NCBI GenBank assembly: GCA_017937065.1
Contig: JAGBEI010000014.1
Span: forward strand, 71,154-135,153
Length of the DNA stretch: 64,000 nt
DNA from: Clostridia bacterium
GTDB lineage: Bacteria > Bacillota > Clostridia > Oscillospirales > QAKW01
Reading direction: 5' to 3'
Below the pieces are notes generated by a model. The model made no database searches. It saw nothing but the letters and a program-made list of their open reading frames with translations, and was not told the origin of the DNA. The position numbers and the translations under genes are program-made. Numbering within the stretch: position 1 is the first letter of the stretch; every line of letters begins with the position of its first letter. This document shows positions 3,480 through 53,806 of the stretch, piece after piece.

Positions 3480-4153
3480 ATTATATAATATCCCGCGCCG
3501 CGGCGGCTGAGAATTATCTCCGGCTCGGACGGTGTTTTCTCCACCTTGGCGCGCAGTCTGCCGATTGCGACGTCCACTGTGTGCAGGTCACCCAAAAAAT
3601 TGTTGTAGCCCCACACCTTTTCCAGTATTTCCTCGCGGGAGACGACCCGCCCGCGGTTTTGTACAAGAAGCATGAGAATTTCGTATTCCTTTTTGCTGAC
3701 CGAAATTTCCTCTCCGTTTTTTAAAACAGCCATTTTGTCGGCGTTTATTTCAAGGTCGCCTGCGGCAAAAACGGTTTCCTTTGGCGGCTTTTTCTCAGTG
3801 CGCGCAAGATTCACCTTTATGCGTGCAATAAGCTCGTTTACCGAAAACGGCTTTGTCACATAGTCGTCCGCCATAAGCGACAGTCCGCGCAGCTTATCCT
3901 CCTCGCTGTCCAGCGCGCTGAGGATTATAACCGGCATGTCCGATGTCTTACGCAGCTGCCGCAGCACCTCAAAGCCCGACATTGACGGCAGCATGAGATC
4001 CAGCACCAAAAGGTCGGCGCCTTCGTTTATAAGCCGGAAAAGCCCTGTCTTTCCGTCGCTCTCTGCCGCAGTCTCAAAGCCCGCCGCTTTGAGATTGAAT
4101 TCTATTATAGAGGAAATGCTGACGTCGTCCTCAAGAATAAATATCTTTTTCAT
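3476..4153 (-). CDS. OmpR/PhoB-family response regulator (WalR-like by eye)
   Basis: The receiver has EDD, LVLDLMLP and ADDYVTKPFS motifs, followed by a winged-helix C-terminus. There is a 4-nt overlap with the kinase gene. Confidence 0.9.
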   Translation of the reverse strand: MKKIFILEDDVSISSIIEFNLKAAGFETAAESDGKTGLFRLINEGADLLVLDLMLPSMSGFEVLRQLRKTSDMPVIILSALDSEEDKLRGLSLMADDYVTKPFSVNELIARIKVNLARTEKKPPKETVFAAGDLEINADKMAVLKNGEEISVSKKEYEILMLLVQNRGRVVSREEILEKVWGYNNFLGDLHTVDVAIGRLRAKVEKTPSEPEIILSRRGAGYYII

Positions 4154-22134: not shown

Positions 22135-22779
22135 CTAAAATGCAAAATTGCACATGCTGCACCTGCCGCCGAGCTTTTTGAAAATCTCCGTAAATTCGGG
22201 ATACCTTTCAAACAGTCCGTCAACATTTCGCACCACCGTATCACCCTTGGTATAGGTCGAAATCAGAATCAGAGCCATTGCCATGTGCGGATTGTTTTTT
22301 GCATTCAACACCGTGTACTCCAACGACCGCTGCGGCCAGATCCACAAATCGTTGCCGTTAAACTCGCACCGCGCGCCCAGCGCATGGAGGTTTTCGATTA
22401 TAAGCTCCTGAAGCTCAGCCGCTGCGGCAAAGCCCGAAATGTGCGTTTTGCCCTTTGCAAACAGTGCCGGTATGGAGATTACAGGCGCTAATACCGGAAA
22501 TTCCTCGATATTGACATGACAGCCCCGCAGGGTATCGGCACGCACGTTTACGCTGTCGCCGCCGCGTGTGATTTTTGCGCCGAAGCGGCGCAGTATGTCC
22601 AGTACCATTTTTCCGTTTTGCTCGCTGCCTGCGTTCAGGTTTGTACAGATAACGGACGAATCAAGCGCCGCGCGCGCAAAAAACATGCCGGCAAAGCTGT
22701 AATCGCCGCTGTATTTTCCTATCAGCGGCGCGCTGAACTCGCCGCGTATATCGCATTTTTTAACTTCTATATCCGACAT
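22135..22779 (-). CDS. EPSP-synthase/EPT-fold protein, C-terminal half only, with catalytic residues substituted
   Basis: Aligns by eye to the C-terminal ~200 aa of AroA (ALFAKGKT, NNPHMAMAL, ERYPEF). Its own ATG lies 5 nt after the upstream stop. Confidence 0.65.
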   Translation of the reverse strand: MSDIEVKKCDIRGEFSAPLIGKYSGDYSFAGMFFARAALDSSVICTNLNAGSEQNGKMVLDILRRFGAKITRGGDSVNVRADTLRGCHVNIEEFPVLAPVISIPALFAKGKTHISGFAAAAELQELIIENLHALGARCEFNGNDLWIWPQRSLEYTVLNAKNNPHMAMALILISTYTKGDTVVRNVDGLFERYPEFTEIFKKLGGRCSMCNFAF

Positions 22780-27059: not shown

Positions 27060-27341
27060 TCACATCTTCTTTTTACGTGTTATCTTGTCGATAAAATCAG
27101 CACCGTTTATAAGATCAGCGGGGTCAACCTCCAAAGCTCTGGCAATATCAAAAAATATGTCTAAATTAAAAGATTTTGCAATTCCTGGCGCTTCAATTAC
27201 GCTGATGAGTGCGCGACTAACATTTGCTTTTTCGGCAAATTCAGCTTGTGACAAGCCCCTTATTCTTCTAAGCGTTGAAATTGTAGCGCTTAATTGTATA
27301 AGCTGATCCCGGCTTTCCGGCGACATCGTTCTATTTCCCAT
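27060..27341 (-). CDS. XRE-family HTH transcriptional regulator (paralog 1)
   Basis: HTH core is GLSQAEFAEKANVSRALISVIEAPG. The ATG at 27341 (MGNRT...) follows a GAGGTG RBS at 9-nt spacing. Confidence 0.8.
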   Translation of the reverse strand: MGNRTMSPESRDQLIQLSATISTLRRIRGLSQAEFAEKANVSRALISVIEAPGIAKSFNLDIFFDIARALEVDPADLINGADFIDKITRKKKM

Positions 27342-27409
27342 AAGTAAATTCACCTCAAAATAATTATATATTATATTTATGTAAAATTCAGCATATTATT
27401 CGTAAGATA

Positions 27410-27454: not shown

Positions 27455-27703
27455 TTATTTCTCAGAGGCATCTATTAATTCTGCTGCACGTATATTCAAT
27501 GCATCTGCAATATCATATAAAACCTCTAAATCAAAGTCGCAAGCACTTCCTGGTGCTTCAATTACACTAAGATAAGAACGGCTAATGTCGGCGAGCTCGG
27601 CTAATTTATCCTGAGATAATCCTTGCTCCTTTCTAAGTTTGGCAATGGTTATACCTAACTGAACAAATCGATCACGATTCTTAAATTTGACTTCTTTTCC
27701 CAT
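27455..27703 (-). CDS. XRE-family HTH transcriptional regulator (paralog 2)
   Basis: HTH core is GLSQDKLAELADISRSYLSVIEAPG. AAGGAGA RBS. Confidence 0.8.
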   Translation of the reverse strand: MGKEVKFKNRDRFVQLGITIAKLRKEQGLSQDKLAELADISRSYLSVIEAPGSACDFDLEVLYDIADALNIRAAELIDASEK

Positions 27704-28374: not shown

Positions 28375-29502
28375 TTATATCTTAATAATATCAAACATGC
28401 TGTCCATAACCGTCATCATCGGCTTATAGAACGACATCACCGTCCAGATTGAATAGCCTGCAAGATTATAATTGCGCAAAAGCTGCATTTTCGCCGCGAC
28501 CGAGCGTGCGTCCTCAAACCAGACGACGTGCTGACGTCCGTTTGAGTCATAGTAGTTATAATAGGGCGTCTGCGCGGTCTCATCGTACATTATTTCCGCG
28601 CCCACCTCGCGCGCCAGCTCTATCGCCCTGTTGTTGGAAATCGCCTGTGCGGCGTTGCCCTTGATAAACGGCAAAGTCCAGTCATAGGCGTAATTGGGTA
28701 TTCCCATCAGCAGCTTTTCGGGCGGAATTTGGCTTACGGCGTACCGCACAACCTCCTCCACCTTGTTAAGCGGCGCGACCGCCATGGGCGGGCCGTAGGT
28801 ATAGCCCCATTCATAGGTCATTATCAGCACATAATCCGCCGCCGCGCCCAAAGCTGCATAGTCGTGCGCCTCGTACAGCAGTCCCGGCTGATCTGAACTG
28901 GTTTTCGGCGCCAGCGCCACCATAACCTTATAGCCCAGCGGCTGGGCAAGCGAGTGCAGAAGCTCGATAAACTTGACATACTGCTGTTTAAATCTCGGTG
29001 GTATGTACTCAAAGTCAACGTCTACGCCGAAATAGTTGTGCGTCTGCAATTTTGCAATAATATTGTTTGCCAGCGCCATTGTCGCCTCCTCACTGCCCAA
29101 AATCGCCGCCGCATTCTCCGAGCTGAACCGCCCGTCCTCGGTAAGCGTTGTAACAAGCAGTACGGGAGCTACGTTGTTATTTTCCGCGATGGTTATGAGC
29201 TCGCTGTCGTCCAGGTCGACAAGCGTGCCGTTGGGACGTATTCCGTACGAAAACGGAGTCAGCGTTGACAGAAACGGCAGCGTCGGAAACAGCGCCGCTT
29301 TGTCAATATGCGGATAAGCATAGCCGTTTGCCAGAACTCTGCCCAGCTTTTCGGCGGGAGACGGCACAATAATCGCCTGACCGACTATCAGCGTGGGCTG
29401 CACCGTCGGACCGTTTGCCGCCAAGAGCTGCTCTATCGTCACCCCGTACATTTTTCCGATAGAGTATAGAGAATCGCCCTTTTGTGTCACATGGATTATC
29501 AT
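28375..29502 (-). CDS. LysM-domain glycoside hydrolase family 18 (YaaH/SleL-type spore peptidoglycan hydrolase)
   Basis: N-terminal LysM (GDSLYSIGKMYGVTIEQLLAANG) and the GH18 catalytic motif GVDVDFEY. Confidence 0.85.
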   Translation of the reverse strand: MIIHVTQKGDSLYSIGKMYGVTIEQLLAANGPTVQPTLIVGQAIIVPSPAEKLGRVLANGYAYPHIDKAALFPTLPFLSTLTPFSYGIRPNGTLVDLDDSELITIAENNNVAPVLLVTTLTEDGRFSSENAAAILGSEEATMALANNIIAKLQTHNYFGVDVDFEYIPPRFKQQYVKFIELLHSLAQPLGYKVMVALAPKTSSDQPGLLYEAHDYAALGAAADYVLIMTYEWGYTYGPPMAVAPLNKVEEVVRYAVSQIPPEKLLMGIPNYAYDWTLPFIKGNAAQAISNNRAIELAREVGAEIMYDETAQTPYYNYYDSNGRQHVVWFEDARSVAAKMQLLRNYNLAGYSIWTVMSFYKPMMTVMDSMFDIIKI

Positions 29503-29583: not shown

Positions 29584-30153
29584 GTGATTAATATTTATAA
29601 AATTTTTATTGACCAGGGTCATAACCCGCAGGGCTTCAACGCAGGCGCCGAGGGTCATGGACTGAGAGAACAGGACGTTACGTATCAGGTCGGGGTCTAT
29701 CTCTCCGAGCTTTTACAGGAAAACGGAAACTTTGAGACAATGCTCTCCCGCCCGACGCCCGAAACGGTGCTGGGTACCTCCAACGCGACCAGCCTTCAGG
29801 CGCGCGTAAACATGGCAAATAACTGGGGTGCCGACTATTTTATCAGCATCCACTGCAACGCCTCCGAAAACCCGCAGGCAAACGGTACAGAGGTGTATGT
29901 TTACAGCCGCAGCTCCCCCGCCTTCGGCATGGCTGAGGATATCCAGCAGCAGATTGTGTCGAGACTGGGCACCAAGGATTTGGGCGTTAAGGAAAATACC
30001 TCCCTTTACGTGCTCCGCCGCACGTCCATGCCCGCAATGCTCGTTGAACTGGCATTTATAACCAACGAGAGCGACGCGCAGCTTTTGCGCTATGACCAGT
30101 ATCAGTTTGCATATGCCATTTATCAGGGAATTTTGCAGTATCTGGGACTGTGA
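29584..30153 (+). CDS. N-acetylmuramoyl-L-alanine amidase (Amidase_3, CwlD-like)
   Basis: IDQGHN, SIHCNA and NGTEVYV motifs. The exact start is uncertain because the GTG overlaps the GGAGGTG RBS. Confidence 0.8.
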   Translation: MINIYKIFIDQGHNPQGFNAGAEGHGLREQDVTYQVGVYLSELLQENGNFETMLSRPTPETVLGTSNATSLQARVNMANNWGADYFISIHCNASENPQANGTEVYVYSRSSPAFGMAEDIQQQIVSRLGTKDLGVKENTSLYVLRRTSMPAMLVELAFITNESDAQLLRYDQYQFAYAIYQGILQYLGL

Positions 30154-30267: not shown

Positions 30268-30274
30268 TTCGACA
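30268..30274 (-). promoter_or_regulatory. perfect 0A box (TGTCGAA) upstream of the spo0A-like gene
   Basis: The plus strand reads TTCGACA, 67 nt upstream of the ATG. Confidence 0.4.
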
Positions 30275-30340
30275 TTTATCGTCGTTTTTTCAGTTTATAT
30301 ATTGCTATAATTATCGCATAACAACGACAGGAGAAAAAAG

Positions 30341-31123
30341 ATGAACACAAAACTTAAAGCCATAGTAGTACAGCCTAATATGGAAAACATGAGAACCGTG
30401 TGTGAATTTTTAAAATCACACGGCTATGAGATAAGCGCAACAACACCGTCAGGCAGCGAAGCGGCTGCGCTTATTGTCAAAAACGAGCCTCAGGTAATAA
30501 TATCCGACGCATATCTGCTTGATGTGGACGTGTGCGGTATGCTGGATATTTTGGAGCAGCGCGGTTTTTCGGGAAAGTCGGTTTTTGTAGTGGCAACAGG
30601 TATTAACAGCGCCTGTATAATCGAAAACGTTCTTAACCGCGGCGTCGACCTGTTTACGCTTATTCCGTTTAACAGCGAATATGCCGACAGAAAAATCCGC
30701 GATATTTACGCTAAAAAACAGCAGTCCGCATTGGCTGGACGTTCCTCATGCGGCGCGCAGATGGACGAATTCGAGCTTTTGAACTACGTTTCAAGGCTTA
30801 TGCACGAGGTCGGCGTGCCCGCATCAATCCGCGGCTACGACTATATACGCGAGTCCATTATGATGGCGCTGGACGACCGCAATATTTTAAAGTCCATAAC
30901 AAAGGAGCTGTACCCCAGCATTGCCAAAAGCAACGACACGACCTCCTCCAGGGTGGAGCGCGCGATAAGGCACGCGGTTGAGGTCGCATGGCAGCGCGGC
31001 GATGTTGAGGTTTTAAACAATATTTTCGGATATACGGTTAAAAGCACAAAGGGCAAACCGACCAACGGCGAGTTTATTTCCATGCTGACGGAGCGTGTTC
31101 GTCTTGATCTGAAAATTTCCTGA
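30341..31123 (+). CDS. spo0A: Spo0A-like sporulation transcription factor with an atypical receiver domain
   Basis: The C-terminal Spo0A DNA-binding domain is unmistakable (YPSIAKSNDTTSSRVERAIRHAVEVAW). The N-terminal REC-like domain lacks the DD pair and the Lys. Confidence 0.8.
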   Translation: MNTKLKAIVVQPNMENMRTVCEFLKSHGYEISATTPSGSEAAALIVKNEPQVIISDAYLLDVDVCGMLDILEQRGFSGKSVFVVATGINSACIIENVLNRGVDLFTLIPFNSEYADRKIRDIYAKKQQSALAGRSSCGAQMDEFELLNYVSRLMHEVGVPASIRGYDYIRESIMMALDDRNILKSITKELYPSIAKSNDTTSSRVERAIRHAVEVAWQRGDVEVLNNIFGYTVKSTKGKPTNGEFISMLTERVRLDLKIS

Positions 31124-31171: not shown

Positions 31172-31203
31172 AACAGGGACGGTTTTAACCGTCCCTGTTT
31201 AAT
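31172..31203. terminator. bidirectional intrinsic terminator
   Basis: AACAGGGACGG paired with CCGTCCCTGTT, followed by TAATTTT. Confidence 0.8.
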
Positions 31204-33288: not shown

Positions 33289-33395
33289 TTCTGCTCTCCT
33301 TTATTGTTTTTTATAATTATAAAACAAACGGATATTTATATCAAGAAAAATTTATATTGACAAACAGAGTTAAATTGTATAATATGTAAGAAATT

Positions 33396-33554
33396 GATAG
33401 AGGTGCGGAAATTATGAGTACGCCGGGATTACATGGGAAAGCATACCGGCGGAAAGGAATAACGCCGAAGCCGCAGTTTTGTCCCTTTTCCGGTCAGGTG
33501 CGGCTGGCGCAGGTCAGAATATGTCCTGTGCTGTCACGCAAGTGGAGAGCTATC
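33396..33554 (+). promoter_or_regulatory. lysine riboswitch (L-box) aptamer
   Basis: Conserved blocks appear in order: GATAGAGGTGCG, GAGTA, GGGAAAG, GCCGAAG, GCTGG, CTGTCA, GGAGAGCTATC. The P1 helix is GATAG/CTATC. Confidence 0.85.
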
Positions 33555-33577
33555 GTGTCTGTCATTCGGTTCGCGGC

Positions 33578-33615
33578 AGCTTTTGGGCTGTGCGCGGGCT
33601 TTTTATTTTTCGGCG
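33578..33615 (+). terminator. riboswitch expression-platform terminator
   Basis: Imperfect stem CGCGGCAGC/GCTGTGCGCG followed by GGCTTTTTATTTTT. Confidence 0.55.
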
Positions 33616-33648
33616 CCGCTGTCAAAAACTAAAATAGGAGAAGGGAAA

Positions 33649-35430
33649 ATGAAAAACAAAAGGATATTTTTGTTTGTTGCCGTCATACTCTGCGTGACGA
33701 TGCTGTTTTCCACCGCTTTTGCAGACGGCGAAACAGCGCCCGATGCGCCCGATTTATCGGTGTCGTCGGATATAGGCGGTGACGCCGCGCCGGCAGACGG
33801 CGCCGATGCAGCTTCAGATGAAGCTGCGCCTGACGCTTTAAGTTCGGATGATGGCGCGTCCGACACCGCCGAAGGCGAAGAGGAGGAGTATCAAAGTCCG
33901 TTTTATTCAACAATTTGGGCACTGCTTCCTCCGCTTATCGCAATAGCGCTTGCACTTATCACAAAAGAGGTTTATTCCTCGCTCTTTATCGGTATCCTTG
34001 TGGGCGGTCTTTTGTGGTCGGGCTTCAGCTTTGAGGGCACCATGACCCATGTGCTGTCCGACGGGTTTGTCGGCTCGCTGGCGGACAGCTACAACGTCGG
34101 TATTCTGCTGTTTCTTGTAATACTCGGCGCGCTGGTTGTCATGATGAACAAGGCGGGCGGCTCTGCGGCGTTCGGCCGCTGGGCGGCGGAGCATATAAAA
34201 TCGAGAACAGGCGCGCAGATTGCGACAATAATTCTCGGTATACTTATCTTTATTGACGATTATTTCAACTGCCTGACAGTCGGCTCGGTAATGCGCCCTG
34301 TCACCGACAAGCAGAATGTGTCGCGCGCCAAGCTGTCCTATCTTATTGACGCGACTGCGGCGCCCGTTTGCATCATCGCACCCGTTTCGTCCTGGGCGGC
34401 GGCGGTCGCAGGCTTTGCCGAGGGCTCGGGTATGAACGGTTTCGAGCTGTTTGTGCGTGCCATTCCGTATAACCTCTATGCACTTCTGACAATCGGCATG
34501 ATGTTTGCCATCACTCTGATGAAGTTTGATTTCGGTCCGATGAAAAGGCATGAGGAGAATGCCAAAAAAGGCGATATTTTTTCCAACGAAAAGCTCAAAG
34601 AGGTCGCCGACAGTATGGAGGGCAACCCGCGCGGCAGAGTGTACGACCTTGTTCTGCCGATTGCCGTGCTGATAGTCTTGTGCGTACTCGGTATGATTTA
34701 TTCCGGAAATTTCTTTACCCCCGGCAAGGAGGGCTATCACAACTTTGTAACTGCATTTTCCGGCAGTGACGCGTCGGTAGGTCTGGTTATCGGCTCGTTC
34801 GGCGCGCTGATTTTCACCGTTATATATCTTATTTGCAGACGTGTGCTGTCGTTTAAGAGCTGTATGGAGTCAATTCCCGAGGGCTTTAAGTCAATGGTAC
34901 CTGCCATCATGATTCTGACCTGCGCATGGACGCTTAAAACGATGACCGACAGTCTGGGCGCCGCTGACTATATTCATGATATTGTTCAGGGCTCGGCGCG
35001 TGCGCTTCAGAGCTTTTTGCCTGCTATCATCTTCCTTATTGCGGTAGGACTTTCTTTTGCGACAGGTACGTCCTGGGGCACTTTCGGCATACTTATTCCG
35101 ATAGTTATAGATGTGTTCGGCTTTAACAGCGGCGAGATTACCATTATTGCCATCTCCGCGTGTATGGCGGGCGCTGTCTGCGGCGACCACTGCTCGCCCA
35201 TCTCCGACACTACCATTATGGCGTCGGCGGGCGCCCAGTGTAACCATCTTGTGCACGTTTCGACGCAGCTGCCCTACGCGCTGTTTGTTGCGGGTATATC
35301 TTTTGTCGGCTATATTGTCGCGGGCTTTGTAAGAAATGTATACATCTCGCTTATCGTATCTTTCGCATTGCTTGCACTGGCGCTTTTCCTTGCATATGTC
35401 ATTTCCGGCCGCAGCAAATCAAAAGCCTGA
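33649..35430 (+). CDS. NhaC-family transporter (LysW-type candidate lysine transporter)
   Basis: Polytopic NhaC-like core. The ATG at 33649 follows a GGAGAAGGG RBS. The ORF-track start at 33583 lies inside the riboswitch terminator. Confidence 0.85.
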   Translation: MKNKRIFLFVAVILCVTMLFSTAFADGETAPDAPDLSVSSDIGGDAAPADGADAASDEAAPDALSSDDGASDTAEGEEEEYQSPFYSTIWALLPPLIAIALALITKEVYSSLFIGILVGGLLWSGFSFEGTMTHVLSDGFVGSLADSYNVGILLFLVILGALVVMMNKAGGSAAFGRWAAEHIKSRTGAQIATIILGILIFIDDYFNCLTVGSVMRPVTDKQNVSRAKLSYLIDATAAPVCIIAPVSSWAAAVAGFAEGSGMNGFELFVRAIPYNLYALLTIGMMFAITLMKFDFGPMKRHEENAKKGDIFSNEKLKEVADSMEGNPRGRVYDLVLPIAVLIVLCVLGMIYSGNFFTPGKEGYHNFVTAFSGSDASVGLVIGSFGALIFTVIYLICRRVLSFKSCMESIPEGFKSMVPAIMILTCAWTLKTMTDSLGAADYIHDIVQGSARALQSFLPAIIFLIAVGLSFATGTSWGTFGILIPIVIDVFGFNSGEITIIAISACMAGAVCGDHCSPISDTTIMASAGAQCNHLVHVSTQLPYALFVAGISFVGYIVAGFVRNVYISLIVSFALLALALFLAYVISGRSKSKA

Positions 35431-37574: not shown

Positions 37575-37875
37575 TTTTTTGCCCTATCTTCTGATTATGG
37601 CGGGCGTTACTTATCTTCTGCGCATGGTGCCGCTTGTTTTTCTGCGCAGTAAGATAAAAAACAGGTTTGTAATATCCTTTCTGCACTATATCCCCGTTGC
37701 AGTGCTCAGCGTTATGGTCGTGCCCGCTGTCTTTTATGCGTCCGGCAGCCTCTTGTCGGCGGTTATCGGCTTTGCAGTCGCTGTTGTTTTTTCCTATTTT
37801 GAAAAAAGCTTGGTTCAGGTTGCATGTCTGTCCTGCGCCGCGGTTTTTGTGACCGAGCTTTTAATAAATTTATAG
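37561..37875 (+). CDS. azlD: AzlD-family small membrane protein
   Basis: 104-aa membrane protein with a 14-nt overlap with azlC. Confidence 0.75.
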   Translation: MLRADFLPYLLIMAGVTYLLRMVPLVFLRSKIKNRFVISFLHYIPVAVLSVMVVPAVFYASGSLLSAVIGFAVAVVFSYFEKSLVQVACLSCAAVFVTELLINL

Positions 37876-39615
37876 CGTGTACTTTTTGTCAAACTGCTCG
37901 AATATTCTGTTAAACTGTTCGTTTTCATGCTTTACGCCGTGCAGGTATCTGTGCGTTTCGAAGCTGCCGTGCGCAAGCTCTATGACAGCTGCCGAGATGT
38001 TGGAGCAGTGATCGGATATCCGCTCAAGGTCACTCAGCAGATTGGCAAAGGTCAGCCCTTGCTCAATGGTGCACGCTCCGCTTTGCAGGCGTTTTACATG
38101 GTTCTTGTGCATTTTCGCCGTAAGCTTGTCAATGACCTGCTCGAGCGGCTCGGTGTTTACGGCAAGCAGAGGGTCGTTGTTTAAAAACGCGTCCGAAGTT
38201 ATCTGAGTTATCTCCTTTACTGCGGCGCTTAGTACGGAAAGCTCCCGCATAGCGTCGTCCGAGTATCCCTTTGTTTTTTCCAGAAGCTCACCGGTATCAA
38301 GGCTTATATGCAGCGCATGGTCGCACATGCGTTCAAGGTCGCTTACCGTGTACAGCATACGGGACACGCGCGCGCTGTCCTCATCTGAGAGCGATTTCTC
38401 GGCGATTCGTACAAGGCTTGTAAGCAGCATGTCCTCGTACATGTCGGAGCGCTTTTCGTTATCCGCCACGGTATCGGATACCTTTTTATCGTATTTTGAT
38501 ATCTGATTGAGAGATAATAATACGGTGTCCCGTGAAAGCCGCGCCATCTCCCGCGTCTTTGACATACATTCGCTGACGGCAACCGACGGGGACATAAACA
38601 GTCGCTCGTCCAGAGCTGAAATTCCGTCTTTTTCCGGCGCGCCGTCCTTAACAATCCTGCATATGAGTTTTTCCAGCTTTGCTGTAAACGGTAAAATCAG
38701 CAGCGTTGACAGAACATTAAACGCCGTGTGCGCCGCGGCTATGCCGACAGGGCTTATTGCCGATGAGAAAAACGGACCGCCTGCGGTTATGCGCAGTATT
38801 TCAAACAGAGTGAAGAACACCGCCGTTCCGATTACGTTTACCGATGTGTGCGCCGCGGCTACCCGCTTTGCATTTTTGCTGCCGCCGATGCAGGATATCA
38901 GCGCTGTGATGCAGGTTCCGATGTTCTGACCCATGATGATCGGCAGTGCGGTTGACCAAGTCACGGCGCCCGTCAGTGCAAACGCCTGCAAAATACCCAC
39001 CGATGCCGAGGACGACTGAATCAGCGCCGTGATAACGATACCTGCAATCAGGCTTAAAAACGGATTTTCAAACTTTACCATGAGCGAGGCAAATTCCGGC
39101 GTGTCCGCAAGCGGGCTTACGGCGCTTGTCATAAACTTCATTCCGTAAATGAGTACCGCAAACCCGATAAGTACCCGTCCTGCGTCCCTTTGCCTGCTCT
39201 TTTTGGCGGACATTATTAAAATCACGCCCAAGAGCGCCAGAAACGGCGTAAAATTTTCCGGCTTGAGCATAGATACGAATATATTTTTGCTCTCAATTCC
39301 CGCAAGGCTTAAAATCCATGCGGTGACGGTTGTACCTATATTTGCGCCGAAAATAATGTACAGAGTTCCCGCAAATTCCATTATTCCGGAATTTACAAGC
39401 CCCACAAGCATAACGGACGTTGCGGACGACGACTGTATAACCATTGTTATCACCATGCCCAGAAACAGACTGAGCGCAGGCTTTTTCTGCGCATGCTTGA
39501 GCACGCGCTCCAGCCTGCCGCCGGCGGATTTTTCGAGATTTTCAGATAATGTCAGCATGCCGAACAGGAAAAATGCAATGCCGCAGATAAATTGTATAAT
39601 GCTGTAAATGCTCAT
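37870..39615 (-). CDS. Na/Pi cotransporter family protein with C-terminal PhoU-like repeats
   Basis: Duplicated QSSSA(T/S) transporter motifs and a helical PhoU-like C-terminal half. Confidence 0.85.
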   Translation of the reverse strand: MSIYSIIQFICGIAFFLFGMLTLSENLEKSAGGRLERVLKHAQKKPALSLFLGMVITMVIQSSSATSVMLVGLVNSGIMEFAGTLYIIFGANIGTTVTAWILSLAGIESKNIFVSMLKPENFTPFLALLGVILIMSAKKSRQRDAGRVLIGFAVLIYGMKFMTSAVSPLADTPEFASLMVKFENPFLSLIAGIVITALIQSSSASVGILQAFALTGAVTWSTALPIIMGQNIGTCITALISCIGGSKNAKRVAAAHTSVNVIGTAVFFTLFEILRITAGGPFFSSAISPVGIAAAHTAFNVLSTLLILPFTAKLEKLICRIVKDGAPEKDGISALDERLFMSPSVAVSECMSKTREMARLSRDTVLLSLNQISKYDKKVSDTVADNEKRSDMYEDMLLTSLVRIAEKSLSDEDSARVSRMLYTVSDLERMCDHALHISLDTGELLEKTKGYSDDAMRELSVLSAAVKEITQITSDAFLNNDPLLAVNTEPLEQVIDKLTAKMHKNHVKRLQSGACTIEQGLTFANLLSDLERISDHCSNISAAVIELAHGSFETHRYLHGVKHENEQFNRIFEQFDKKYTL

Positions 39616-39943
39616 TTTTCACCTCCGAAAATTGGTTTTGTTTCATAAGTTAGTATCGACTGTTGCCCGATAAATATTTGTAAAAATTAAGAAAGCCGCA
39701 CGAAAAAAATCCGCGCGGCTTTTGTGTGGAAAGTTATATTAGAAAAAATATTGCTGTATTGCTTTGTCTGCAGTTTTGTCCGCAGGTCTCCCCACGGGTT
39801 TGTATCCAGACTTACGACGGCAATGCCTGCCGCCGGGAGGGCTCCCGCCGAAAAACTCGATAATCCCTCCGCCTCGTTAACCAAGCTTAAAATTTTGGTC
39901 TGGCGCTTTTAAAATTCCCTTTAAAACAACTGCCCACCTTTCT
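39616..39943 (-). other. long GC-rich structured 5' leader of the Na/Pi cotransporter gene, with a terminator-like hairpin (class not recognised)
   Basis: Lies between a consensus promoter and the start codon. Hairpins seen are CGGCA/TGCCG, GGAGGG/CCCTCC, CTGC/GCAG, and AAGCCGCGCG/CGTGCGGCTT followed by a T-rich tract. Confidence 0.45.
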
Positions 39944-47442: not shown

Positions 47443-48567
47443 TTATGACGGGTTTTCTTCTGTTTGGTCATCCAGACCGAGCTGCTGCTTGATTTCGTCT
47501 GTAAGCAGCTCATCTTGGTCGCTGCTGTCGGAGGTTTGAAGGTTTACAACGGACAGCTCCTGTAAAACGGAGTTATTGTATTCAACGCCGATGCGCTCCT
47601 TCAGATCTTCAAGAATTTTGTTTGACTCCTCGCTCATCATGTTTTCGATGAGCATGACTTCGGTGTCGCGTGAGTAAAGCTCATCGTCCGTGAATGAGTA
47701 TTTTTTCATTATATGATAACCGAGATTTGACTGTACAAGGCGTATTTCCCCCGCCTTCATGTCAAATGCCGCGTTGTGGAACACCTTGGTGTAAGAGCTG
47801 TCCTCTGAGGAAAATACATATCCGTCCGGATTGGACGCCATGCCCGGGTCTTCGTTATACTCGTCAATCAGCTTTTCAAAATCCTCTCCCGCTGTTGCCT
47901 TGTCATAGATTTCCTGAGCCTTTTTGCCTATTTCCTCTTTTTTGGCATTTGAAAAGTCGTTGCCCTCATCGTCCTTGGTTGAGAGAAAAACATGCTTTAC
48001 CTTTGTATAATACTCTTCGTAATACTGTCTCAGTGCGTCGCGGCTGACCGGATTTTCCGTGCTTTCAGGCCCGAAATAATACATAATGACAGCCTGCTTT
48101 TTGGCTTCATCATAATACTGGGCTTCAAAGTCCTCATATGTAAAGCCCTGGCTGCGCAGGTGTTCGTCCAGCGCCTCACGGCTGCCGTACTGCGTGATAA
48201 AGCCCTGCATCGTCTCCTCGATTTCGGCGGTAACCTCCTCATCAAGCTCCAGTCCCAGCTCATCAAAATGAATTGAATACAAATTGTAGGTGATGAGATA
48301 GGTCTGTATCATTGCGTCAAGATATTCCTGCACCGTGGAAGAATAGCTCTCGTCGATGTATCTGTCCCACAGCTCGTCGTTTTCTTCGAGATCGTTGCTT
48401 GTCAGAAACTGAGATTTTATGCTTACTGCCACCGACTTGTATCTTGCGGCCAAGATGACACGGTCGCCTATTTTAAGTGCATAGCCGCCCGAGGAACAGG
48501 AGGCAAGCGCTGTCAGTATAACGGCAGTTGCCGCAAGCGCGCTCAGCGCTCTTTTGAATATTTTCAT
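47443..48567 (-). CDS. lipoprotein peptidyl-prolyl isomerase (PrsA/SurA-like parvulin)
   Basis: Lipobox LASCSS and a parvulin domain ending in GYHIMKK. Confidence 0.8.
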   Translation of the reverse strand: MKIFKRALSALAATAVILTALASCSSGGYALKIGDRVILAARYKSVAVSIKSQFLTSNDLEENDELWDRYIDESYSSTVQEYLDAMIQTYLITYNLYSIHFDELGLELDEEVTAEIEETMQGFITQYGSREALDEHLRSQGFTYEDFEAQYYDEAKKQAVIMYYFGPESTENPVSRDALRQYYEEYYTKVKHVFLSTKDDEGNDFSNAKKEEIGKKAQEIYDKATAGEDFEKLIDEYNEDPGMASNPDGYVFSSEDSSYTKVFHNAAFDMKAGEIRLVQSNLGYHIMKKYSFTDDELYSRDTEVMLIENMMSEESNKILEDLKERIGVEYNNSVLQELSVVNLQTSDSSDQDELLTDEIKQQLGLDDQTEENPS

Positions 48568-48735
48568 CGATTAATCCTCCGTTTATTGTTAAATGCAAAT
48601 GCTTTACAGGTATATTATAGCTTCAGGAAGATGTCTTTGTCTATAACCAAAATGTAAAAAATATATAAAATCTGTTTTACAGTGTGACAAATTTATGCTA
48701 TAATTCAAGCAAGTAAGATTTCAGAGGAAATGCAG

Positions 48736-50070
48736 ATGAAAAAAAACGACAGGACGGAAGTTTTGATAGAGGGCTACTCGTCCGAGGGCTACGGTGTGGC
48801 AAAGCCGGACGGATACGTTCTGTTTATTCCGGGCACCGTGTGCGGCGAGCGGGTGCTGGCTCATGTTTTAAAGGCAGGTAAAAGTTACGGTTATGCAAGG
48901 GCGGAAAAGCTGATTGAATTATCCGACCGCCGCGCAGAGCCCGGGTGCGCTGTCAGCAGCGTCTGTGGCGGCTGTTCGCTGTGGCACATGAACTATGAAG
49001 AGGAGCTCAGGTTTAAGCGCGAAAAAGTGCGCCGCGAACTGAAAAAAGCGGGAGCTGATGTTGATTTTGAAGCGGTGGTGCGCGGCAAAACCACGGGGTA
49101 CCGGAATAAGGCGCAGTACCCTGTGCGGGAGAAGGGCGGCAAAATCGCAGTCGGGTTTTACCGGCGTGCAAGCCATGATGTTGCCGAGGGCAGGTGCAGA
49201 ATTCAGCCCGATATATTCGGCAGTATTGCCGATGCGGTTCGGGATTATATGGAGCAAAACGGGATTTCGGCTTATAACGAACAGACGCTTTGCGGCACTG
49301 TTCGTCATATTTTTCTGCGCGCGTCGCATGATTTTTCACAGATTATGCTTTGCCTTGTGGTAAACGGCAGCTTTGATTTGAAGCAGAATTTTTCGCGGCA
49401 CATAACGGACAGGTTTCCGTCCGTCAGCACCGTGCTTATAAATTATAACAGTGAAAACACAAATGTAATTCTCGGCAGCCGCTTTGAAACGGTTTCGGGC
49501 AGCGGCACCGTGACCGACACGCTGTGCGAAAAACGCTTTGAAATATCCCCGCAGGCATTTTATCAGGTAAATCATGACGTGTGTCAGAAGCTTTACGGAA
49601 TAGTATCTGATTTTGCGGCGGCGGATAAAAATACGCGCGTTTTGGATTTGTACTGCGGAATAGGCACCGTCGGACTGTGCGCCTGTCCTGACGCGGGCGA
49701 GCTTGTCGGGGTCGAGATTGTACCGCAGGCGGTGGAAAACGCACGCAAAAACGCCGCTGTCAACGGAGCGGAAAACGCGCGGTTTTATGCGTGCGATGCC
49801 GCAGGAATTGCGGCACTTAATTTGGGCAGCTTTGACGTTATTATCGTAGACCCGCCGCGGCGCGGCTGCGATGCGGCAACGCTTGATTTTATTATTGAGT
49901 CCCGACCCTTGCGGCTTGTCTATATTTCCTGTGACTGCGCAACGCTTGCGCGGGATATCGCAATACTGCAAAAGGGCGGCTTTTCCGTTTCGCGTGCGGC
50001 TTTAGCGGATATGTTTCCGCGCACAAAGCACGTTGAGACGGTGGTGCTGATGACACGCAAAGACACTTGA
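48736..50070 (+). CDS. rlmD: 23S rRNA (uracil-C5)-methyltransferase, RlmD/RumA family
   Basis: TRAM-like N-terminus, a Cys cluster (C..CGGCS), the SAM fold, and VDPPRRG. The ATG at 48736 has better RBS spacing than the one at 48730. Confidence 0.85.
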   Translation: MKKNDRTEVLIEGYSSEGYGVAKPDGYVLFIPGTVCGERVLAHVLKAGKSYGYARAEKLIELSDRRAEPGCAVSSVCGGCSLWHMNYEEELRFKREKVRRELKKAGADVDFEAVVRGKTTGYRNKAQYPVREKGGKIAVGFYRRASHDVAEGRCRIQPDIFGSIADAVRDYMEQNGISAYNEQTLCGTVRHIFLRASHDFSQIMLCLVVNGSFDLKQNFSRHITDRFPSVSTVLINYNSENTNVILGSRFETVSGSGTVTDTLCEKRFEISPQAFYQVNHDVCQKLYGIVSDFAAADKNTRVLDLYCGIGTVGLCACPDAGELVGVEIVPQAVENARKNAAVNGAENARFYACDAAGIAALNLGSFDVIIVDPPRRGCDAATLDFIIESRPLRLVYISCDCATLARDIAILQKGGFSVSRAALADMFPRTKHVETVVLMTRKDT

Positions 50071-50122: not shown

Positions 50123-53100
50123 ATGATTACAAAATCGAACTTCAGAGATGTACTAAAGGCACTTTCTTTTATAGAAATATCCGCCGATTTATATGAAAAG
50201 CGGTATGAGATATTTGACTGTTCAATAACTGTTGATTTCAAAAAAGAAAAAATCACATACCCGGAGGATAAGGGTATGCGGATAGACCGCCATACAACGG
50301 ATAATTTTTCCGCAAACGAGAATTTTGTTGTTTTGGAATGCGTGGACAGGCTTTTATCAAAGGGCTATCGACCCGAGCACATTGAGCTTGAAAAGAAATG
50401 GTCTTTGGGACATATGATTTCCGGCGGAGAGGACAGCGGTTTTGCCGATATATGCGTTTACGGCAACGACGGCAAGGTTCTCTTTATCATAGAGTGCAAA
50501 ACCGCCGGAAGCAAATATGCAAGGGAATACGGCAAAATCCTGAGCTACGGCGGGCAGCTGTTTTCATATTGGCAGCAGCAGCGCAGCTGTAAGTTTATTA
50601 TTCTCTATGCCTCTGATTTTGCGGACGGCAGGCTGTTTTATACAACCGACAGCGTGGATTGCAGCGACGACCGGAATATCCTTGCCCTTGCCGAGAAAGA
50701 CGATTCTATTCTGCTCTACAAAAATGCACATGCCGTAGAGGATTTATACGCCGTATGGGATGAAACGTACGAAAGGCGTTTTTGCGGTGACGTCGTTTTC
50801 CGCGATGACTCCGTCGCATATAAAATCGGCGCGAAACCGCTTCGCAAGGGCGATCTCAAGGATATCAGAGAAAACGATAAGATTGTCAATAAATTTGAAG
50901 AAATTCTGCGCCATAACAGTGTTTCCGACAAGGAAAACGCCTTTAACAGACTGATTGCCCTTTTCATCTGCAAGCTCGTTGATGAAATTCAGAAGGGCGA
51001 TAACGATGAGGTGGAATTTCAGTATCGGGTAGGAACCGACACATACGAATCTCTGCAGGACAGACTTCAGCGCTTACATAAGGAGGGCATGGAGAAGTTT
51101 ATGCGCGAGGAGATTTTCTATGTTCCGGATACCTATGCCGAGGAATTGGTACAGCAGTACTGCGGGTATAAGCGCAGGAATATGATTGAAGACCTGAAAA
51201 GGACACTGCGCATTCTGAAGTTTTACACAAATAATGACTTTGCCTTTAAAAATGTTCATAATGAGGAGCTGTTCTATCAAAACGGTAAAATAGTTGTGGA
51301 AGTGGTGAAGCTTTTTGAGCGTTACCGAATTATCGACTCTTCCGATGTGCAGATGCTCGGTGATTTGTTTGAGCAGCTGCTTAATAAAGGCTTTAAACAA
51401 AATGAAGGACAGTTTTTCACGCCTATTCCGATTACAAGGTTTATCTGGGACAGTCTTCCCGTTACAGGGACAGTCAAAAAGGAACGCGGTGCGGAGTATC
51501 CGAAAATAATAGACTATGCCTGCGGCGCAGGTCATTTTTTGACGCAGGGCGTGGAGGCTGTCGATGCAGCTGTTAAAAAGACCAATCCCTCTGCCGAAAA
51601 CGGACACTCCTGGATAGAGAACAGGGTTTACGGTATAGAAAAAGACTACCGCCTTGCCCGCGTGTCGAAAATATCCCTGTTCATGCACGGCGCGGGAAAT
51701 GCAAATGTGATATTCGGCGACGGTCTTGAAAATTATTCCGACAAGGGAATCGTGCCGGGCAGCTTTGACATTCTTGTTGCCAACCCGCCTTACGCGGTTA
51801 AGGCGTTTAAGAGCCATTTGAAGCTGAAGAACAATTCGTTCAGGCTGCTGAATAAAATCACAAATGACGGTTCTGAAATCGAGACGCTTTTTGCCGAGCG
51901 TATTTCACAGCTGCTAAAGCCCGGCGGTATAGCCGCGGTTATTCTGCCATCTTCAATACTGAGCAACGATTCCGGCAGTTATACGGGAGCGCGAGAGGAG
52001 CTTTTACAGCATTTTCGTATTTGTGCAATTACCTGCTTCGGCAGTAAAACCTTCGGTGCGACGGGGACGAATACGGTTGTTTTGTTTCTGCAAAAGCTTG
52101 ATGAGACGCCCGCGCGCTTTAAATTGGCGGAGGACAGCGCAGATGCAGTTCTTTCCGGCAGATCCCTTGAGAATTGGGAGGACGGGGAAATATATTATTC
52201 CTACCTTGCACAAGTTGAGTGTGACAGGAAATTTTACAGAGCCTTAATCAAAGAATCAAAGCCGTACGGCTATTTCGCAAACGATAAATACCTGAAAAAC
52301 TATACCGCTGCGTTTGAGGAGCTTGCGGATGTAAAAGCCAAGAAAAGGCAGAAAACATTTAAGAACATGAGCGCCGGGGAGCAGGCAAAATGGATGAATC
52401 AGCGTTTCTATGCCTTTGTTAAGGAAAGAGAAAAGGAAAAGCTGATGTATTTTGCCATGGTTTACAAGCAGACGGTTTTGATTGTTACAGCGCCTGCGGA
52501 CAATGCAAAACAGAAAGCGTTTCTCGGCTATGACTGGAGCAACCGCAAGGGCAATGAGGGTATTGTTATCAATACGCCCGGAGGAATGCTGTATGACGAC
52601 AGCGACCGCTTTGCAGACGATACGCTTTCCGGCATGATACGTGATTCGTTTGCCGGTAAGCTGAGATCGCTGCCGAAATATGAGCAATACTATCGCTATG
52701 CAAATCTGCGTGATATGATTGATTTTTCACGGGTTGAATTTAACAAGGCGATAAAGACTGCCGTCAAAAATAGGCTTCAAAGCAAATACCCTCTTGTACC
52801 TTTGAAAACATTATTGCTGGATATTATCGGAAATACCACTAAGACGGCAAATACAGATACCCTGCCGAGCGGGAGTATCCCTGTCGTTTCGCAAAATACG
52901 GATTCGTTAATAAGCGGCTATGTTGAAACAAGCAGACCTATAGAGGACTTGCCCGTTATATTGTTCGGTGATCATACCTGTTGTTTCAAGTATATTGATT
53001 TTCCGTTTGTAAGGGGCGCGGACAATACGCAGCTTTTAAAATTCAACGACACCGTTATTCCGAAATATATGTATTACGTGCTGCCGGAAATTGAAATCGA

Positions 53101-53806
53101 AAATAAGGATAAATACGAAAGACATTTCAAGTATTTAAAACAGGCGCTTGTCCCCGTTGCGCCGCTCGATATTCAGCAGAAAATCGTTGACGAGTGTGCC
53201 TTAATAGACGAGGAGTATAACGCTGTGCGTACAGCTATTGAAAAACATCGGGAAAGCATTGAAAAACTTTTTGCCGAGGCTGCAGCGTCAGGCGGGACAA
53301 CGGTAAGGCTTGACTCTTCGGAATTATTCGCGCTCGGTATAGGAAAGCGGGTTTTGAAAAAGCAGATTACGGATACAGGCATACCTATTTACAGTGCAAA
53401 CGTAAACGAGCCTTTCGGATATATAGAGGATGCTGTGTTTGATGATTATTCTGTCGGCACCGTTATCTGGGGGATTGACGGCGATTGGGATGTAAGCTAT
53501 ATCCCGCCGCAGACTCCGTTCTATCCGACAGACCACTGCGGAACCCTGCGTGTTTTATCCGACGGAATAAACGCGCATTATGTTGCTTTCGCTCTCAAGG
53601 CGGAGGGCATACGGCAGAGATTTACCCGCTCAAACCGTGCGTCAGCCGACCGTGTGAAGGCGTTGAGATTAACGCTGCCCGATAAAAAAGTACAGGACGA
53701 TTTTACGGCAAAGGCAGAAAAAGCAGATACTGAAATCGCAAAGCTCAATGCAAGGCTTGCGGCTGTCAACGCGGCAAAACGGGATGTGCTGAAAAAATAT
53801 TTGTGA
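50123..53806 (+). CDS. single-chain restriction-modification-specificity enzyme (Type IIB/IIG-like)
   Basis: N-terminal PD-(D/E)xK (FADICVY...FIIECK). Gamma-class N6-adenine methyltransferase with motif I DYACGAGHFL and motif IV NPPY. The C-terminus holds two HsdS-like target-recognition domains separated by helical spacers. Confidence 0.8.
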   Translation: MITKSNFRDVLKALSFIEISADLYEKRYEIFDCSITVDFKKEKITYPEDKGMRIDRHTTDNFSANENFVVLECVDRLLSKGYRPEHIELEKKWSLGHMISGGEDSGFADICVYGNDGKVLFIIECKTAGSKYAREYGKILSYGGQLFSYWQQQRSCKFIILYASDFADGRLFYTTDSVDCSDDRNILALAEKDDSILLYKNAHAVEDLYAVWDETYERRFCGDVVFRDDSVAYKIGAKPLRKGDLKDIRENDKIVNKFEEILRHNSVSDKENAFNRLIALFICKLVDEIQKGDNDEVEFQYRVGTDTYESLQDRLQRLHKEGMEKFMREEIFYVPDTYAEELVQQYCGYKRRNMIEDLKRTLRILKFYTNNDFAFKNVHNEELFYQNGKIVVEVVKLFERYRIIDSSDVQMLGDLFEQLLNKGFKQNEGQFFTPIPITRFIWDSLPVTGTVKKERGAEYPKIIDYACGAGHFLTQGVEAVDAAVKKTNPSAENGHSWIENRVYGIEKDYRLARVSKISLFMHGAGNANVIFGDGLENYSDKGIVPGSFDILVANPPYAVKAFKSHLKLKNNSFRLLNKITNDGSEIETLFAERISQLLKPGGIAAVILPSSILSNDSGSYTGAREELLQHFRICAITCFGSKTFGATGTNTVVLFLQKLDETPARFKLAEDSADAVLSGRSLENWEDGEIYYSYLAQVECDRKFYRALIKESKPYGYFANDKYLKNYTAAFEELADVKAKKRQKTFKNMSAGEQAKWMNQRFYAFVKEREKEKLMYFAMVYKQTVLIVTAPADNAKQKAFLGYDWSNRKGNEGIVINTPGGMLYDDSDRFADDTLSGMIRDSFAGKLRSLPKYEQYYRYANLRDMIDFSRVEFNKAIKTAVKNRLQSKYPLVPLKTLLLDIIGNTTKTANTDTLPSGSIPVVSQNTDSLISGYVETSRPIEDLPVILFGDHTCCFKYIDFPFVRGADNTQLLKFNDTVIPKYMYYVLPEIEIENKDKYERHFKYLKQALVPVAPLDIQQKIVDECALIDEEYNAVRTAIEKHRESIEKLFAEAAASGGTTVRLDSSELFALGIGKRVLKKQITDTGIPIYSANVNEPFGYIEDAVFDDYSVGTVIWGIDGDWDVSYIPPQTPFYPTDHCGTLRVLSDGINAHYVAFALKAEGIRQRFTRSNRASADRVKALRLTLPDKKVQDDFTAKAEKADTEIAKLNARLAAVNAAKRDVLKKYL

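Follow-up and report, generated by a model that had tools for sequence, protein, structure and literature searches.

A spo0A-family gene of uncultured gut Clostridia encodes a receiver domain without the canonical phosphorylation pocket

Introduction

Can a Spo0A protein act as a regulator when its receiver domain no longer holds the residues used for phosphorylation? This question is raised by a spo0A-family gene located at positions 30341-31123 (+) of a 64,000-nucleotide stretch of Clostridia bacterium DNA (GenBank assembly GCA_017937065.1, contig JAGBEI010000014.1, positions 71,154 to 135,153); this whole stretch is called the window below. All Spo0A proteins studied so far are activated by aspartate phosphorylation (PMC11210211; bioRxiv 10.1101/2022.02.07.479450), and a review of clostridial sporulation treats this phosphorylation as universal, the open question being which kinases perform it (PMC11210211). 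A preliminary description of the window had proposed that the receiver of this protein is unlikely to be phosphorylated in the usual way.

Receivers that keep the fold but in which one or more of the five active-site residues are missing are known as pseudo-receivers and make up about 6% of bacterial receivers (PMC12632262). The second residue of the acidic pair (DD2) is lost most often, and many of these proteins, among them GlnR, HP1043, ChxR and RamR, are constitutive dimers controlled by their abundance. Spo0A is not mentioned in that review (PMC12632262), and in the literature on pseudo-receivers and on atypical or phosphorylation-independent regulators we found no published description of a Spo0A with a degenerate receiver. 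Pseudo-receivers as such are already known; what is new is a pseudo-receiver on the master regulator of sporulation.

Receiver domain of the window protein

The N-terminal domain (residues 1-125, 30341-30715 (+)) showed 21.7 bits with the receiver family PF00072, which is under the gathering threshold of 30.2, and matched the solved Spo0A receiver 5wq0 at 7e-8. In the HMMER alignment to 5wq0, AIVVQPNMENM pairs with VAIADDNKELV and FTLIPF with FMLKPF, by which the canonical D10, D11, D56, T86 and K108 correspond to Q11, P12, D56, T86 and I108. A MAFFT alignment with Bacillus subtilis Spo0A, for which the reference sequence used scored 102.7 and 150 bits in Pfam, gave the same correspondence. 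The Mg-binding acidic pair (DD) is replaced by Gln11-Pro12 (CAG CCT, 30371-30376 (+)), located in the beta1-alpha1 loop of the predicted structure, and the invariant Lys by Ile in Ile108-Pro109 (ATT CCG, 30662-30667 (+)). The phospho-acceptor position retains Asp56 (GAC, 30506-30508 (+)), and the 'T' position retains Thr86 (30596-30598 (+), MAFFT alignment). The N-x-E of the canonical DDNxE is kept as N13-x-E15, anchoring QP on the DD position, and E15, which matches the E of this motif, is the sole acidic residue near the acidic-pair site.

The AlphaFold model, built on 66 homologues, had a predicted local distance difference test score (pLDDT) of 85.4, with the receiver blocks mostly at 85-95. 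It contains the five strands and five helices of a (beta-alpha)5 fold (E6-10, H14-26, E30-35, H38-48, E52-55, H64-73, E81-86, H91-99, E104-107 and H112-132), and Foldseek matched it to 5wq0 with a template modelling (TM) score of 0.79-0.85 relative to the target. The residues of the pocket positions were found at the C-terminal ends of beta1, beta3, beta4 and beta5. By the two alignments and the model, the protein has lost both the acidic pair and the Lys; they are not shifted elsewhere, so the refuting outcome named in the preliminary description was not observed. The interdomain linker that follows (residues 126-149, 30716-30787 (+)) is variable and of low confidence, with pLDDT below 50 at residues 133-140; its identity is 25-48% among most orthologues and 77% to the closest one (locus L007).

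Two further markers of phosphorylatable receivers (PMC12632262) are also changed, Pro at D+4 being Leu60 and Gly at D+8 being Val64, while T+1 retains a small residue (Gly87), and both the Phe at K+2 and the Y-T coupling pair (Thr86, Phe105) are kept. By the definition of PMC12632262 the domain is, on the alignments and the model, a pseudo-receiver, a receiver fold lacking three of the five active-site residues (DD1, DD2 and K). With Asp56 present it is not an aspartate-less receiver.

The loss of the pocket is not explained by decay. Compared with the 96% identical orthologue of L007, the ratio of nonsynonymous to synonymous substitution (dN/dS) was 0.027 in the receiver (dS 0.76) and 0.028 in the C-terminal domain (dS 0.42), so the receiver is under strong purifying selection. 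In Clostridioides difficile Spo0A, each of the substitutions D10A, D11A, S86A and K108A severely cut sporulation, and the same pocket residues also matter for dimerisation (bioRxiv 10.1101/2022.02.07.479450). The low PF00072 score, the C. difficile results for D10A, D11A and K108A, and the conservation pattern described below all argue that phosphorylation in the usual way is unlikely, as had been proposed.

Family assignment and DNA-binding domain

The C-terminal half was found to be a Spo0A DNA-binding domain, in agreement with the preliminary description. The Spo0A_C domain (DNA binding and transcription activation) covers residues 150-252 (30788-31096 (+); PF08769, 141 bits, 1.5e-41) and matched the Spo0A-C structures 1lq1 (8e-39) and 1fc3 (4e-38). 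Foldseek placed the AlphaFold model on 1fc3/1lq1 at a root-mean-square deviation of 1.4-1.7 A and a TM score of 0.88-0.93 relative to the target. The domain is 54% identical to that of B. subtilis Spo0A. The recognition-helix segment SRVERAIRHA (residues 203-212, 30947-30976 (+), assigned by alignment) was invariant in 66 aligned proteins of the related clades A-C, described below, and is the same in B. subtilis and Geobacillus stearothermophilus Spo0A.

The whole protein matched the NCBI equivalog model TIGR02875 (spore_0_A) with 204.3 bits against a cut-off of 200, over model positions 2-262 of 262. An identical protein is recorded from an NCBI metagenome-assembled genome (MAG) as MBP3480649.1, named sporulation transcription factor Spo0A, and is encoded in 80 assembly blocks, one of which is a 2.1-Mb contig. 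As automatic annotation says plain 'Spo0A', the loss of the pocket would escape sporulation predictors based on counting spo0A genes in MAGs.

Compared with the canonical Spo0A of B. subtilis, G. stearothermophilus and C. difficile, the window protein has the same two-domain layout and a similar length (260 residues against 267 in B. subtilis), and shares the SRVERAIRHA segment, the TIGR02875 match and 0A boxes upstream of its own gene. It differs in keeping two of the five pocket residues (D and T), in a receiver only 20% identical to that of B. subtilis, and in its location off spoIVB.

Distribution and conservation of the altered receiver

We searched 5.8 billion proteins for homologues and analysed the best 120 matches; the canonical pocket was found in none of these 120. 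They fell mainly into three clades. Clade A (at least 53% identity to the window protein, 53 clusters) has Q/A/H/C and others at the first DD position and P/T/A/G and others at the second, Asp at position 56 in 53 of 53, T/S at position 86 in 43 of 53, and I (41), M (5), V (4), L (2) or R (1) at the Lys position. In clade B (about 46% identity, 49 clusters) the DD positions are Q and then S/T/A, position 56 is D and rarely E, position 86 is S, and the Lys position is P/L/M. Clade C (about 44% identity, 13 clusters) has varied residues at DD, D or E at position 56, S at position 86, and R, rarely K, at the Lys position.

No acidic residue was found at either DD position in the 102 cluster representatives of clades A and B (53 and 49), and the DD columns of these representatives had an entropy of 2.4-2.6 bits. 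Asp56 is nearly invariant across clades A-C. Within clade A the invariant residues are Asp56, Asp63, Asp103, Pro109, Phe23 and Tyr29, and conservation is highest in the alpha4-beta5 segment. Clade B carries a D/E-E-E cluster two residues past the DD position. The PF00072 score decreased from B. subtilis Spo0A (102.7 bits) through canonical Oscillospirales Spo0A (69), clade C (43.3), a further group called clade D (41.9, see below), clade B (34.5) and clade A (29.2) to the window protein (21.7), and the Spo0A_C score was steady at 138-154 bits across all of these proteins.

In GTDB, 185,579 species genomes were scanned with query-specific peptide patterns, to which canonical genes of the TNSEFIAM type are invisible. 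The scan revealed 55 loci, all in uncultured MAGs labelled Clostridia or Eubacteriales bacterium and originating from human, ruminant, rabbit and other guts. Clades A-C accounted for 48 of the 55 loci, in 47 Oscillospirales-like MAGs. Each MAG contained one spo0A-like gene, the exceptions being a MAG that carries two clade-A copies and a gene divided between two contigs, and by the invariant TNGEFISM pattern clades A-D were mutually exclusive within MAGs. The prolyl-tRNA synthetase (ProRS) encoded in the window is 80-81% identical to MAG proteins labelled Oscillospiraceae or Acutalibacteraceae, which makes the taxonomic placement in the preliminary description a reasonable one.

The two clade-A copies belong to MAG JAZPZR01 (L013 and L015) and are close to each other in sequence, on separate short contigs with similar upstream regions. 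Either the gene was duplicated recently or two strains were combined in one bin.

In neighbour-joining trees with 100 bootstraps, clades A+B+C were grouped at 100%, both with full-length proteins and with the C-terminal domain alone. The group has a long branch, its C-terminal domain being 56-59% identical to that of canonical Oscillospirales Spo0A, which are themselves about 78% identical to one another. Their gene neighbourhoods are also shared, so that the genes of all three clades are positional orthologues. The gene for an amidase of the Amidase_3 family lies directly 5' of the spo0A-like gene in L007-L010, as in the window, and 3-9 kb from it in 11 clade-B loci; in clade C, the rotamase/TRAM-methyltransferase pair of window 47443-50070 is found close to the spo0A-like gene.

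Four more proteins (P0386, P0426, P0465 and P0505; loci L069-L072) have clade-A-like pseudo-receivers, are 33-41% identical to the window protein and carry a diverged recognition helix, for example SVERAIRVAVKRSW in place of SRVERAIRHAVEVAW. Either paralogy or faster evolution of their lineages could account for them. A scan of JGI metagenomes with these four revealed four loci, in which no spoIVB, second Spo0A_C or common neighbours were found.

0A box and autoregulation

A perfect 0A box, TGTCGAA (TTCGACA on the coding strand), was found by sequence match at 30268-30274 (-), upstream of the gene. The preliminary description had read it as a hint of autoregulation. The box itself stands and recurs in orthologues, but a single box does not exceed chance: the window contains 7 copies of TGTCGAA where 8.5 would be expected, and a case for the box from window statistics alone was rejected as not significant. 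Perfect boxes, always in the same orientation, were found no more than about 250 nt upstream of the gene (about 316 nt in clade C) in 4 of 13 clade-A, 16 of 28 clade-B and 6 of 7 clade-C loci, where about 0.015 per locus and strand would be expected. In two clade-C loci a pair of perfect boxes is spaced by 10 nt. Boxes are also present in 5 of 5 clade-D loci, in the opposite orientation. Autoregulation is therefore supported by the conservation of the box in position and orientation across orthologues and not by the single box, and as a trait of the family it appears well supported from these sequences.

TATAAT is the only invariant block among 12 aligned clade-A upstream regions, and in the window it forms part of a predicted extended -10 element, TGcTATAAT, at 30303-30311 (+) (TG at 30303-30304, TATAAT at 30306-30311). 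The CGAC core of the box is the second-best conserved block and lies about 31-33 nt 5' of TATAAT in 10 of the 12 regions. A sigma-70 consensus scan called no promoter before the spo0A-like gene and found no good -35, so the -10 was assigned from conservation, and its role as a promoter is putative. A possible second, degenerate box (ATCGTCG, 30278-30284 (-)), read from the sequence 10 nt from the first and weakly indicated, is TTCGCCG in the aligned L008. Counted from the start expected for this -10, the first box would be centred near -47 and the weaker second near -37, which would be activator-type positions.

Clade D and other Spo0A variants

Clade D (P0140-P0159) was defined from lower-ranking matches in the GTDB scan, one of which served as the query for a further homologue search. 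The acceptor Asp is replaced by S/T/A/N/R/Q in 19 of 20 representatives (P0147 keeps Asp), the Lys by Glu, and at most one acidic residue is left at DD. These proteins fit the class of aspartate-less receivers, of which RitR is the archetype (PMC4395418), whereas the window protein, with its Asp, belongs to the pseudo-receivers outside this class. In L058 (8581-10690) the clade-D gene is directly after a gene encoding Peptidase_S55 and PDZ domains, which is spoIVB, and SpoIVB homologues are within 1-3 kb of the clade-D gene in L054, L056 and L060. Since clade D adjoins spoIVB, a bona fide spo0A locus can carry an aspartate-less receiver.

The C-terminal domain of clade D is 72% identical to that of canonical Oscillospirales-type Spo0A and 59% to that of clades A-C, and monophyly of A+B+C+D reached a bootstrap of only 15-19%. 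We considered the spoIVB linkage of clade D as proof of orthology for the window gene and rejected it because of this low bootstrap. The genes flanking clade D (CarD, IspD, IspF and an aminotransferase) were also considered as an 'empty' ancestral locus in the window, and this was rejected as well; the similarly sized ORFs at window 59.5-61.5 kb encode a short-chain dehydrogenase and a major facilitator superfamily (MFS) transporter.

Among the closest canonical relatives is the cultured Acidaminobacterium chupaoyuni, with pocket residues DD, D, S and K and a spo0A gene not adjoining spoIVB. In many Oscillospirales-type Spo0A, DD and Lys are intact but the acceptor position is occupied by Glu (…VIVTEAMLP…), including P0162-P0164, P0168, P0172, P0175-P0178, P0186, P0187, P0191, P0193, P0196 and others. 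Glu at the phospho-acceptor is the classic phosphomimetic substitution. Proteins with two to four tandem Spo0A_C copies and no receiver were also found (P0380 with 394 aa, P0381 with 454 aa, P0382, P0383, P0385, P0448, P0477 and P0493), and Pfam gave 3, 4 and 2 stretches in the three tested.

Proposed mode of action

On balance we think it probable that the window gene is the Spo0A of its lineage, with a receiver turned pseudo-receiver, and that it is controlled by its level or by partners instead of His-Asp phosphotransfer. Without Mg2+ site and Lys the domain would be unable to catalyse this phosphotransfer, and for the same reason kinases or a phosphorelay would not switch the protein. The protein would bind 0A boxes like other Spo0A, including those of its own promoter, giving a positive feedback. 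The pseudo-receiver may serve as a phosphorylation-independent dimerisation or regulatory module, in which the invariant Asp56, Thr86 and Phe105, together with the conserved alpha4-beta5 segment, would contribute to folding or to the dimer interface; the pocket Asp of GlnR and RamR has such a role, being needed for dimer formation and not for phosphorylation (PMC12632262). Activation would then be set by the amount of protein (transcription and feedback), by binding partners, or by both. By this analogy a role in dimer formation would be the simplest account of the invariant Asp56, although it would explain the strict conservation only partly.

Some known systems resemble the window protein in part. 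The developmental master regulator FruA of Myxococcus xanthus keeps the acceptor Asp, lacks the metal-binding acidic residues and is thought to be unphosphorylated; it differs from the window protein in output domain and phylum. GlnR, RamR, HP1043 and ChxR have lost pocket residues together with the D+4 Pro and D+8 Gly, as the window receiver has (PMC12632262), and GlnR and RamR keep a pocket Asp like Asp56, but their outputs are of the OmpR or NarL type and that of the window protein is Spo0A_C. WhiI and BldM of Streptomyces are orphan atypical response regulators of sporulation whose activity is set by the choice of partner and not by phosphorylation (PMC4125116). They are developmental atypical regulators like the window protein, unrelated to it in output domain and type of sporulation, and a partner of the window protein is hypothetical.

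A stronger statement is that a lineage of at least 47 species-level, Oscillospirales-like genomes starts sporulation through a never-phosphorylated Spo0A, by way of its own feedback promoter, partners or both, and that the same change happened independently in clade D. We put this forward tentatively and hold it to be possible rather than probable. If the gene is the only Spo0A of its host, a prevalent gut group may have no kinase input at all, and the sporulation decision would lie in promoter control, feedback or protein partners. The protein would then be a natural exception to the rule of an Asp-phosphorylated Spo0A in all endospore formers; it would bring a Spo0A_C output into the class of bacterial pseudo-receivers, which is poorly understood, and at least two independent origins (clades A-C and clade D) would be open to comparison.

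Several points weigh against the lineage's Spo0A having become a pseudo-receiver regulator. The TIGR02875 cut-off is passed by a narrow margin. A second, canonical spo0A may exist beyond the window and the approximately 1 Mb of related loci that were searched. The gene is not beside spoIVB, and, as clade D is not sister to A+B+C, the synteny of clade D serves as a precedent only. Neither the 64-kb window nor the stretches up to 10 kb from the gene in the clade A-C loci yielded an unambiguous sporulation-specific gene, so a non-sporulating host is possible. The strict conservation of Asp56, with Thr/Ser86 and Phe105, also fits some remaining modification at Asp56. Finally, dimerisation, DNA binding and feedback are all steps that we infer.

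Alternative explanations

The alternative that survives best is a paralogue: the genome would also contain a canonical, phosphorylatable spo0A, and the window gene would be a lineage-specific duplicate acting as a modulator, either as a competitor for 0A boxes or as a heterodimer partner, in the way WhiI is for BldM. We consider this unlikely, though worth keeping in view. The precedent of WhiI-BldM (PMC4125116) speaks for it, as do the long branch of A+B+C with a C-terminal domain so much less similar to the canonical proteins than these are to each other, the occurrence of Spo0A_C in other architectures including the tandem copies, the more diverged A-like proteins with altered recognition helices, and the two clade-A copies in one MAG. 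The location of the gene outside the spoIVB neighbourhood points the same way. The preliminary description had already called the context unusual, and neither spoIVB nor recN was found in the 64-kb window by a SpoIVB homologue search and Pfam scans; SpoIVB homologues were not found in the clade A-C loci either. But the canonical spo0A of A. chupaoyuni is also off spoIVB, so location says little and the argument from odd context loses most of its force.

Against a duplicate, the recognition helix is unchanged and the C-terminal domain is as constrained as the receiver, which fits a primary regulator better than a drifting copy. A tblastn search with the C-terminal domain as query gave a single copy in the window and a single copy in each of 65 loci totalling about 1 Mb, with no second Spo0A_C in any of them. 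Clade D shows that a spoIVB-linked gene can itself lose the pocket, and the NCBI equivalog model accepts the window protein as Spo0A.

It is less probable still, and we think it rather improbable, that the lineage is sporeless and that the protein is a repurposed relic, a Spo0A-derived, phosphorylation-independent factor kept for stationary-phase or cell-envelope functions. The small genome (longest contig about 2.1 Mb), the lack of a clear sporulation-specific gene in the window and flanks, and the rearrangement around spoIVB in the clade-D locus L056 would agree with it. However, the 0A recognition helix and the autoregulatory boxes are strongly conserved over a deep clade, the closest relatives have neighbours of the spore-cortex type (Amidase_3 and LysM-GH18), and the scan for sporulation genes covered only a small fraction of the genome.

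That Asp56 is still phosphorylated by an unconventional route, with metal ligands from, for example, Glu15, or with help from a partner protein, seems to us very improbable. The invariance of Asp56 in clade A and its near-invariance in A-C, the kept Thr/Ser86, Gly87 and Phe105, and the D/E-E-E cluster of clade B would suit such a route. The DD positions are nevertheless non-acidic and so variable that no selection for metal binding is apparent, the Lys has become hydrophobic residues or Pro, and the D+4 Pro and D+8 Gly are gone. Single Ala changes already cripple sporulation with C. difficile Spo0A (bioRxiv 10.1101/2022.02.07.479450), and GlnR and RamR keep their pocket Asp for dimerisation and not phosphorylation (PMC12632262).

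An artefact or decaying pseudogene, which the sub-threshold Pfam score of the receiver might suggest, can be dismissed for practical purposes given the intact reading frame, the identical protein in 80 assembly blocks including the 2.1-Mb contig, the dN/dS of about 0.03 and the confidently predicted fold.

Gene surroundings and other features of the window

No other long ORF was found at the position of the spo0A-like gene (+), which consists of 260 codons and a stop codon in the ORF list. Its ATG is the earliest available start past the preceding stop, and a ribosome-binding site AGGAG at 30329-30333 (+), 7 nt 5' of the ATG, is conserved in orthologues. Downstream, a hairpin resembling an intrinsic terminator, with a 12-bp stem (31172-31199 (+)), lies between the convergent spo0A-like and alaX-like genes.

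The upstream neighbour, separated by a spacer of 187 nt, encodes the Amidase_3 protein of 189 aa (29584-30153 (+), profile match). The preliminary description had called it CwlD-like. CwlD is its best NCBIfam match, but at 100 bits, far under the cut-off of 221.55, and reading the N-terminus by eye revealed no obvious signal or anchor, so this label is only loosely valid. Next to it, a gene at 28375-29502 (-) encodes a LysM and GH18 protein of YaaH/SleL-like architecture, which is beside the amidase also in L007-L010.

About 3 kb 5' of the spo0A-like gene there are two small helix-turn-helix (HTH) genes of the XRE family, at 27060-27353 (-) and 27455-27703 (-), with a weak NCBIfam likeness to SlrR/SinR-type regulators; the pair occurs also in L007. 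On the other side, a lysine riboswitch (33390-33560 (+)) is directly 5' of a gene of the NhaC-type Na+/H+ antiporter family (33583-35430 (+)). This arrangement is conserved in L007-L009, and in clade B the NhaC-type gene adjoins the spo0A-like gene.

Normal two-component signalling is present in this genome, as 2094-4153 (-) contains an ordinary HAMP-HisKA-HATPase kinase with an OmpR-type regulator whose receiver gives 83 bits (PF00072).

A full-length glmS ribozyme (85.9 bits) was found at 39756-39918 (-). It precedes a gene other than glmS, at 37870-39615 (-), which encodes a 581-aa protein with Na/Pi-cotransporter and PhoU domains. This arrangement is common to three related species (L007 19359-19521, L008 12852-13012 and L009 12017-12176).

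A 214-aa ORF at 22135-22779 (-) matches only the C-terminal half of EPSP synthase/MurA-type enzymes (positions 223-413 of the 415 in the aroA model). Conserved in L007 as well, it could represent a truncated form of the enzyme or a domain that exists on its own. The 1227-aa product of the gene at 50123-53806 (+) combines N6_Mtase and Eco57I methylase domains and is probably a fused restriction-modification enzyme of type IIG/IIL.

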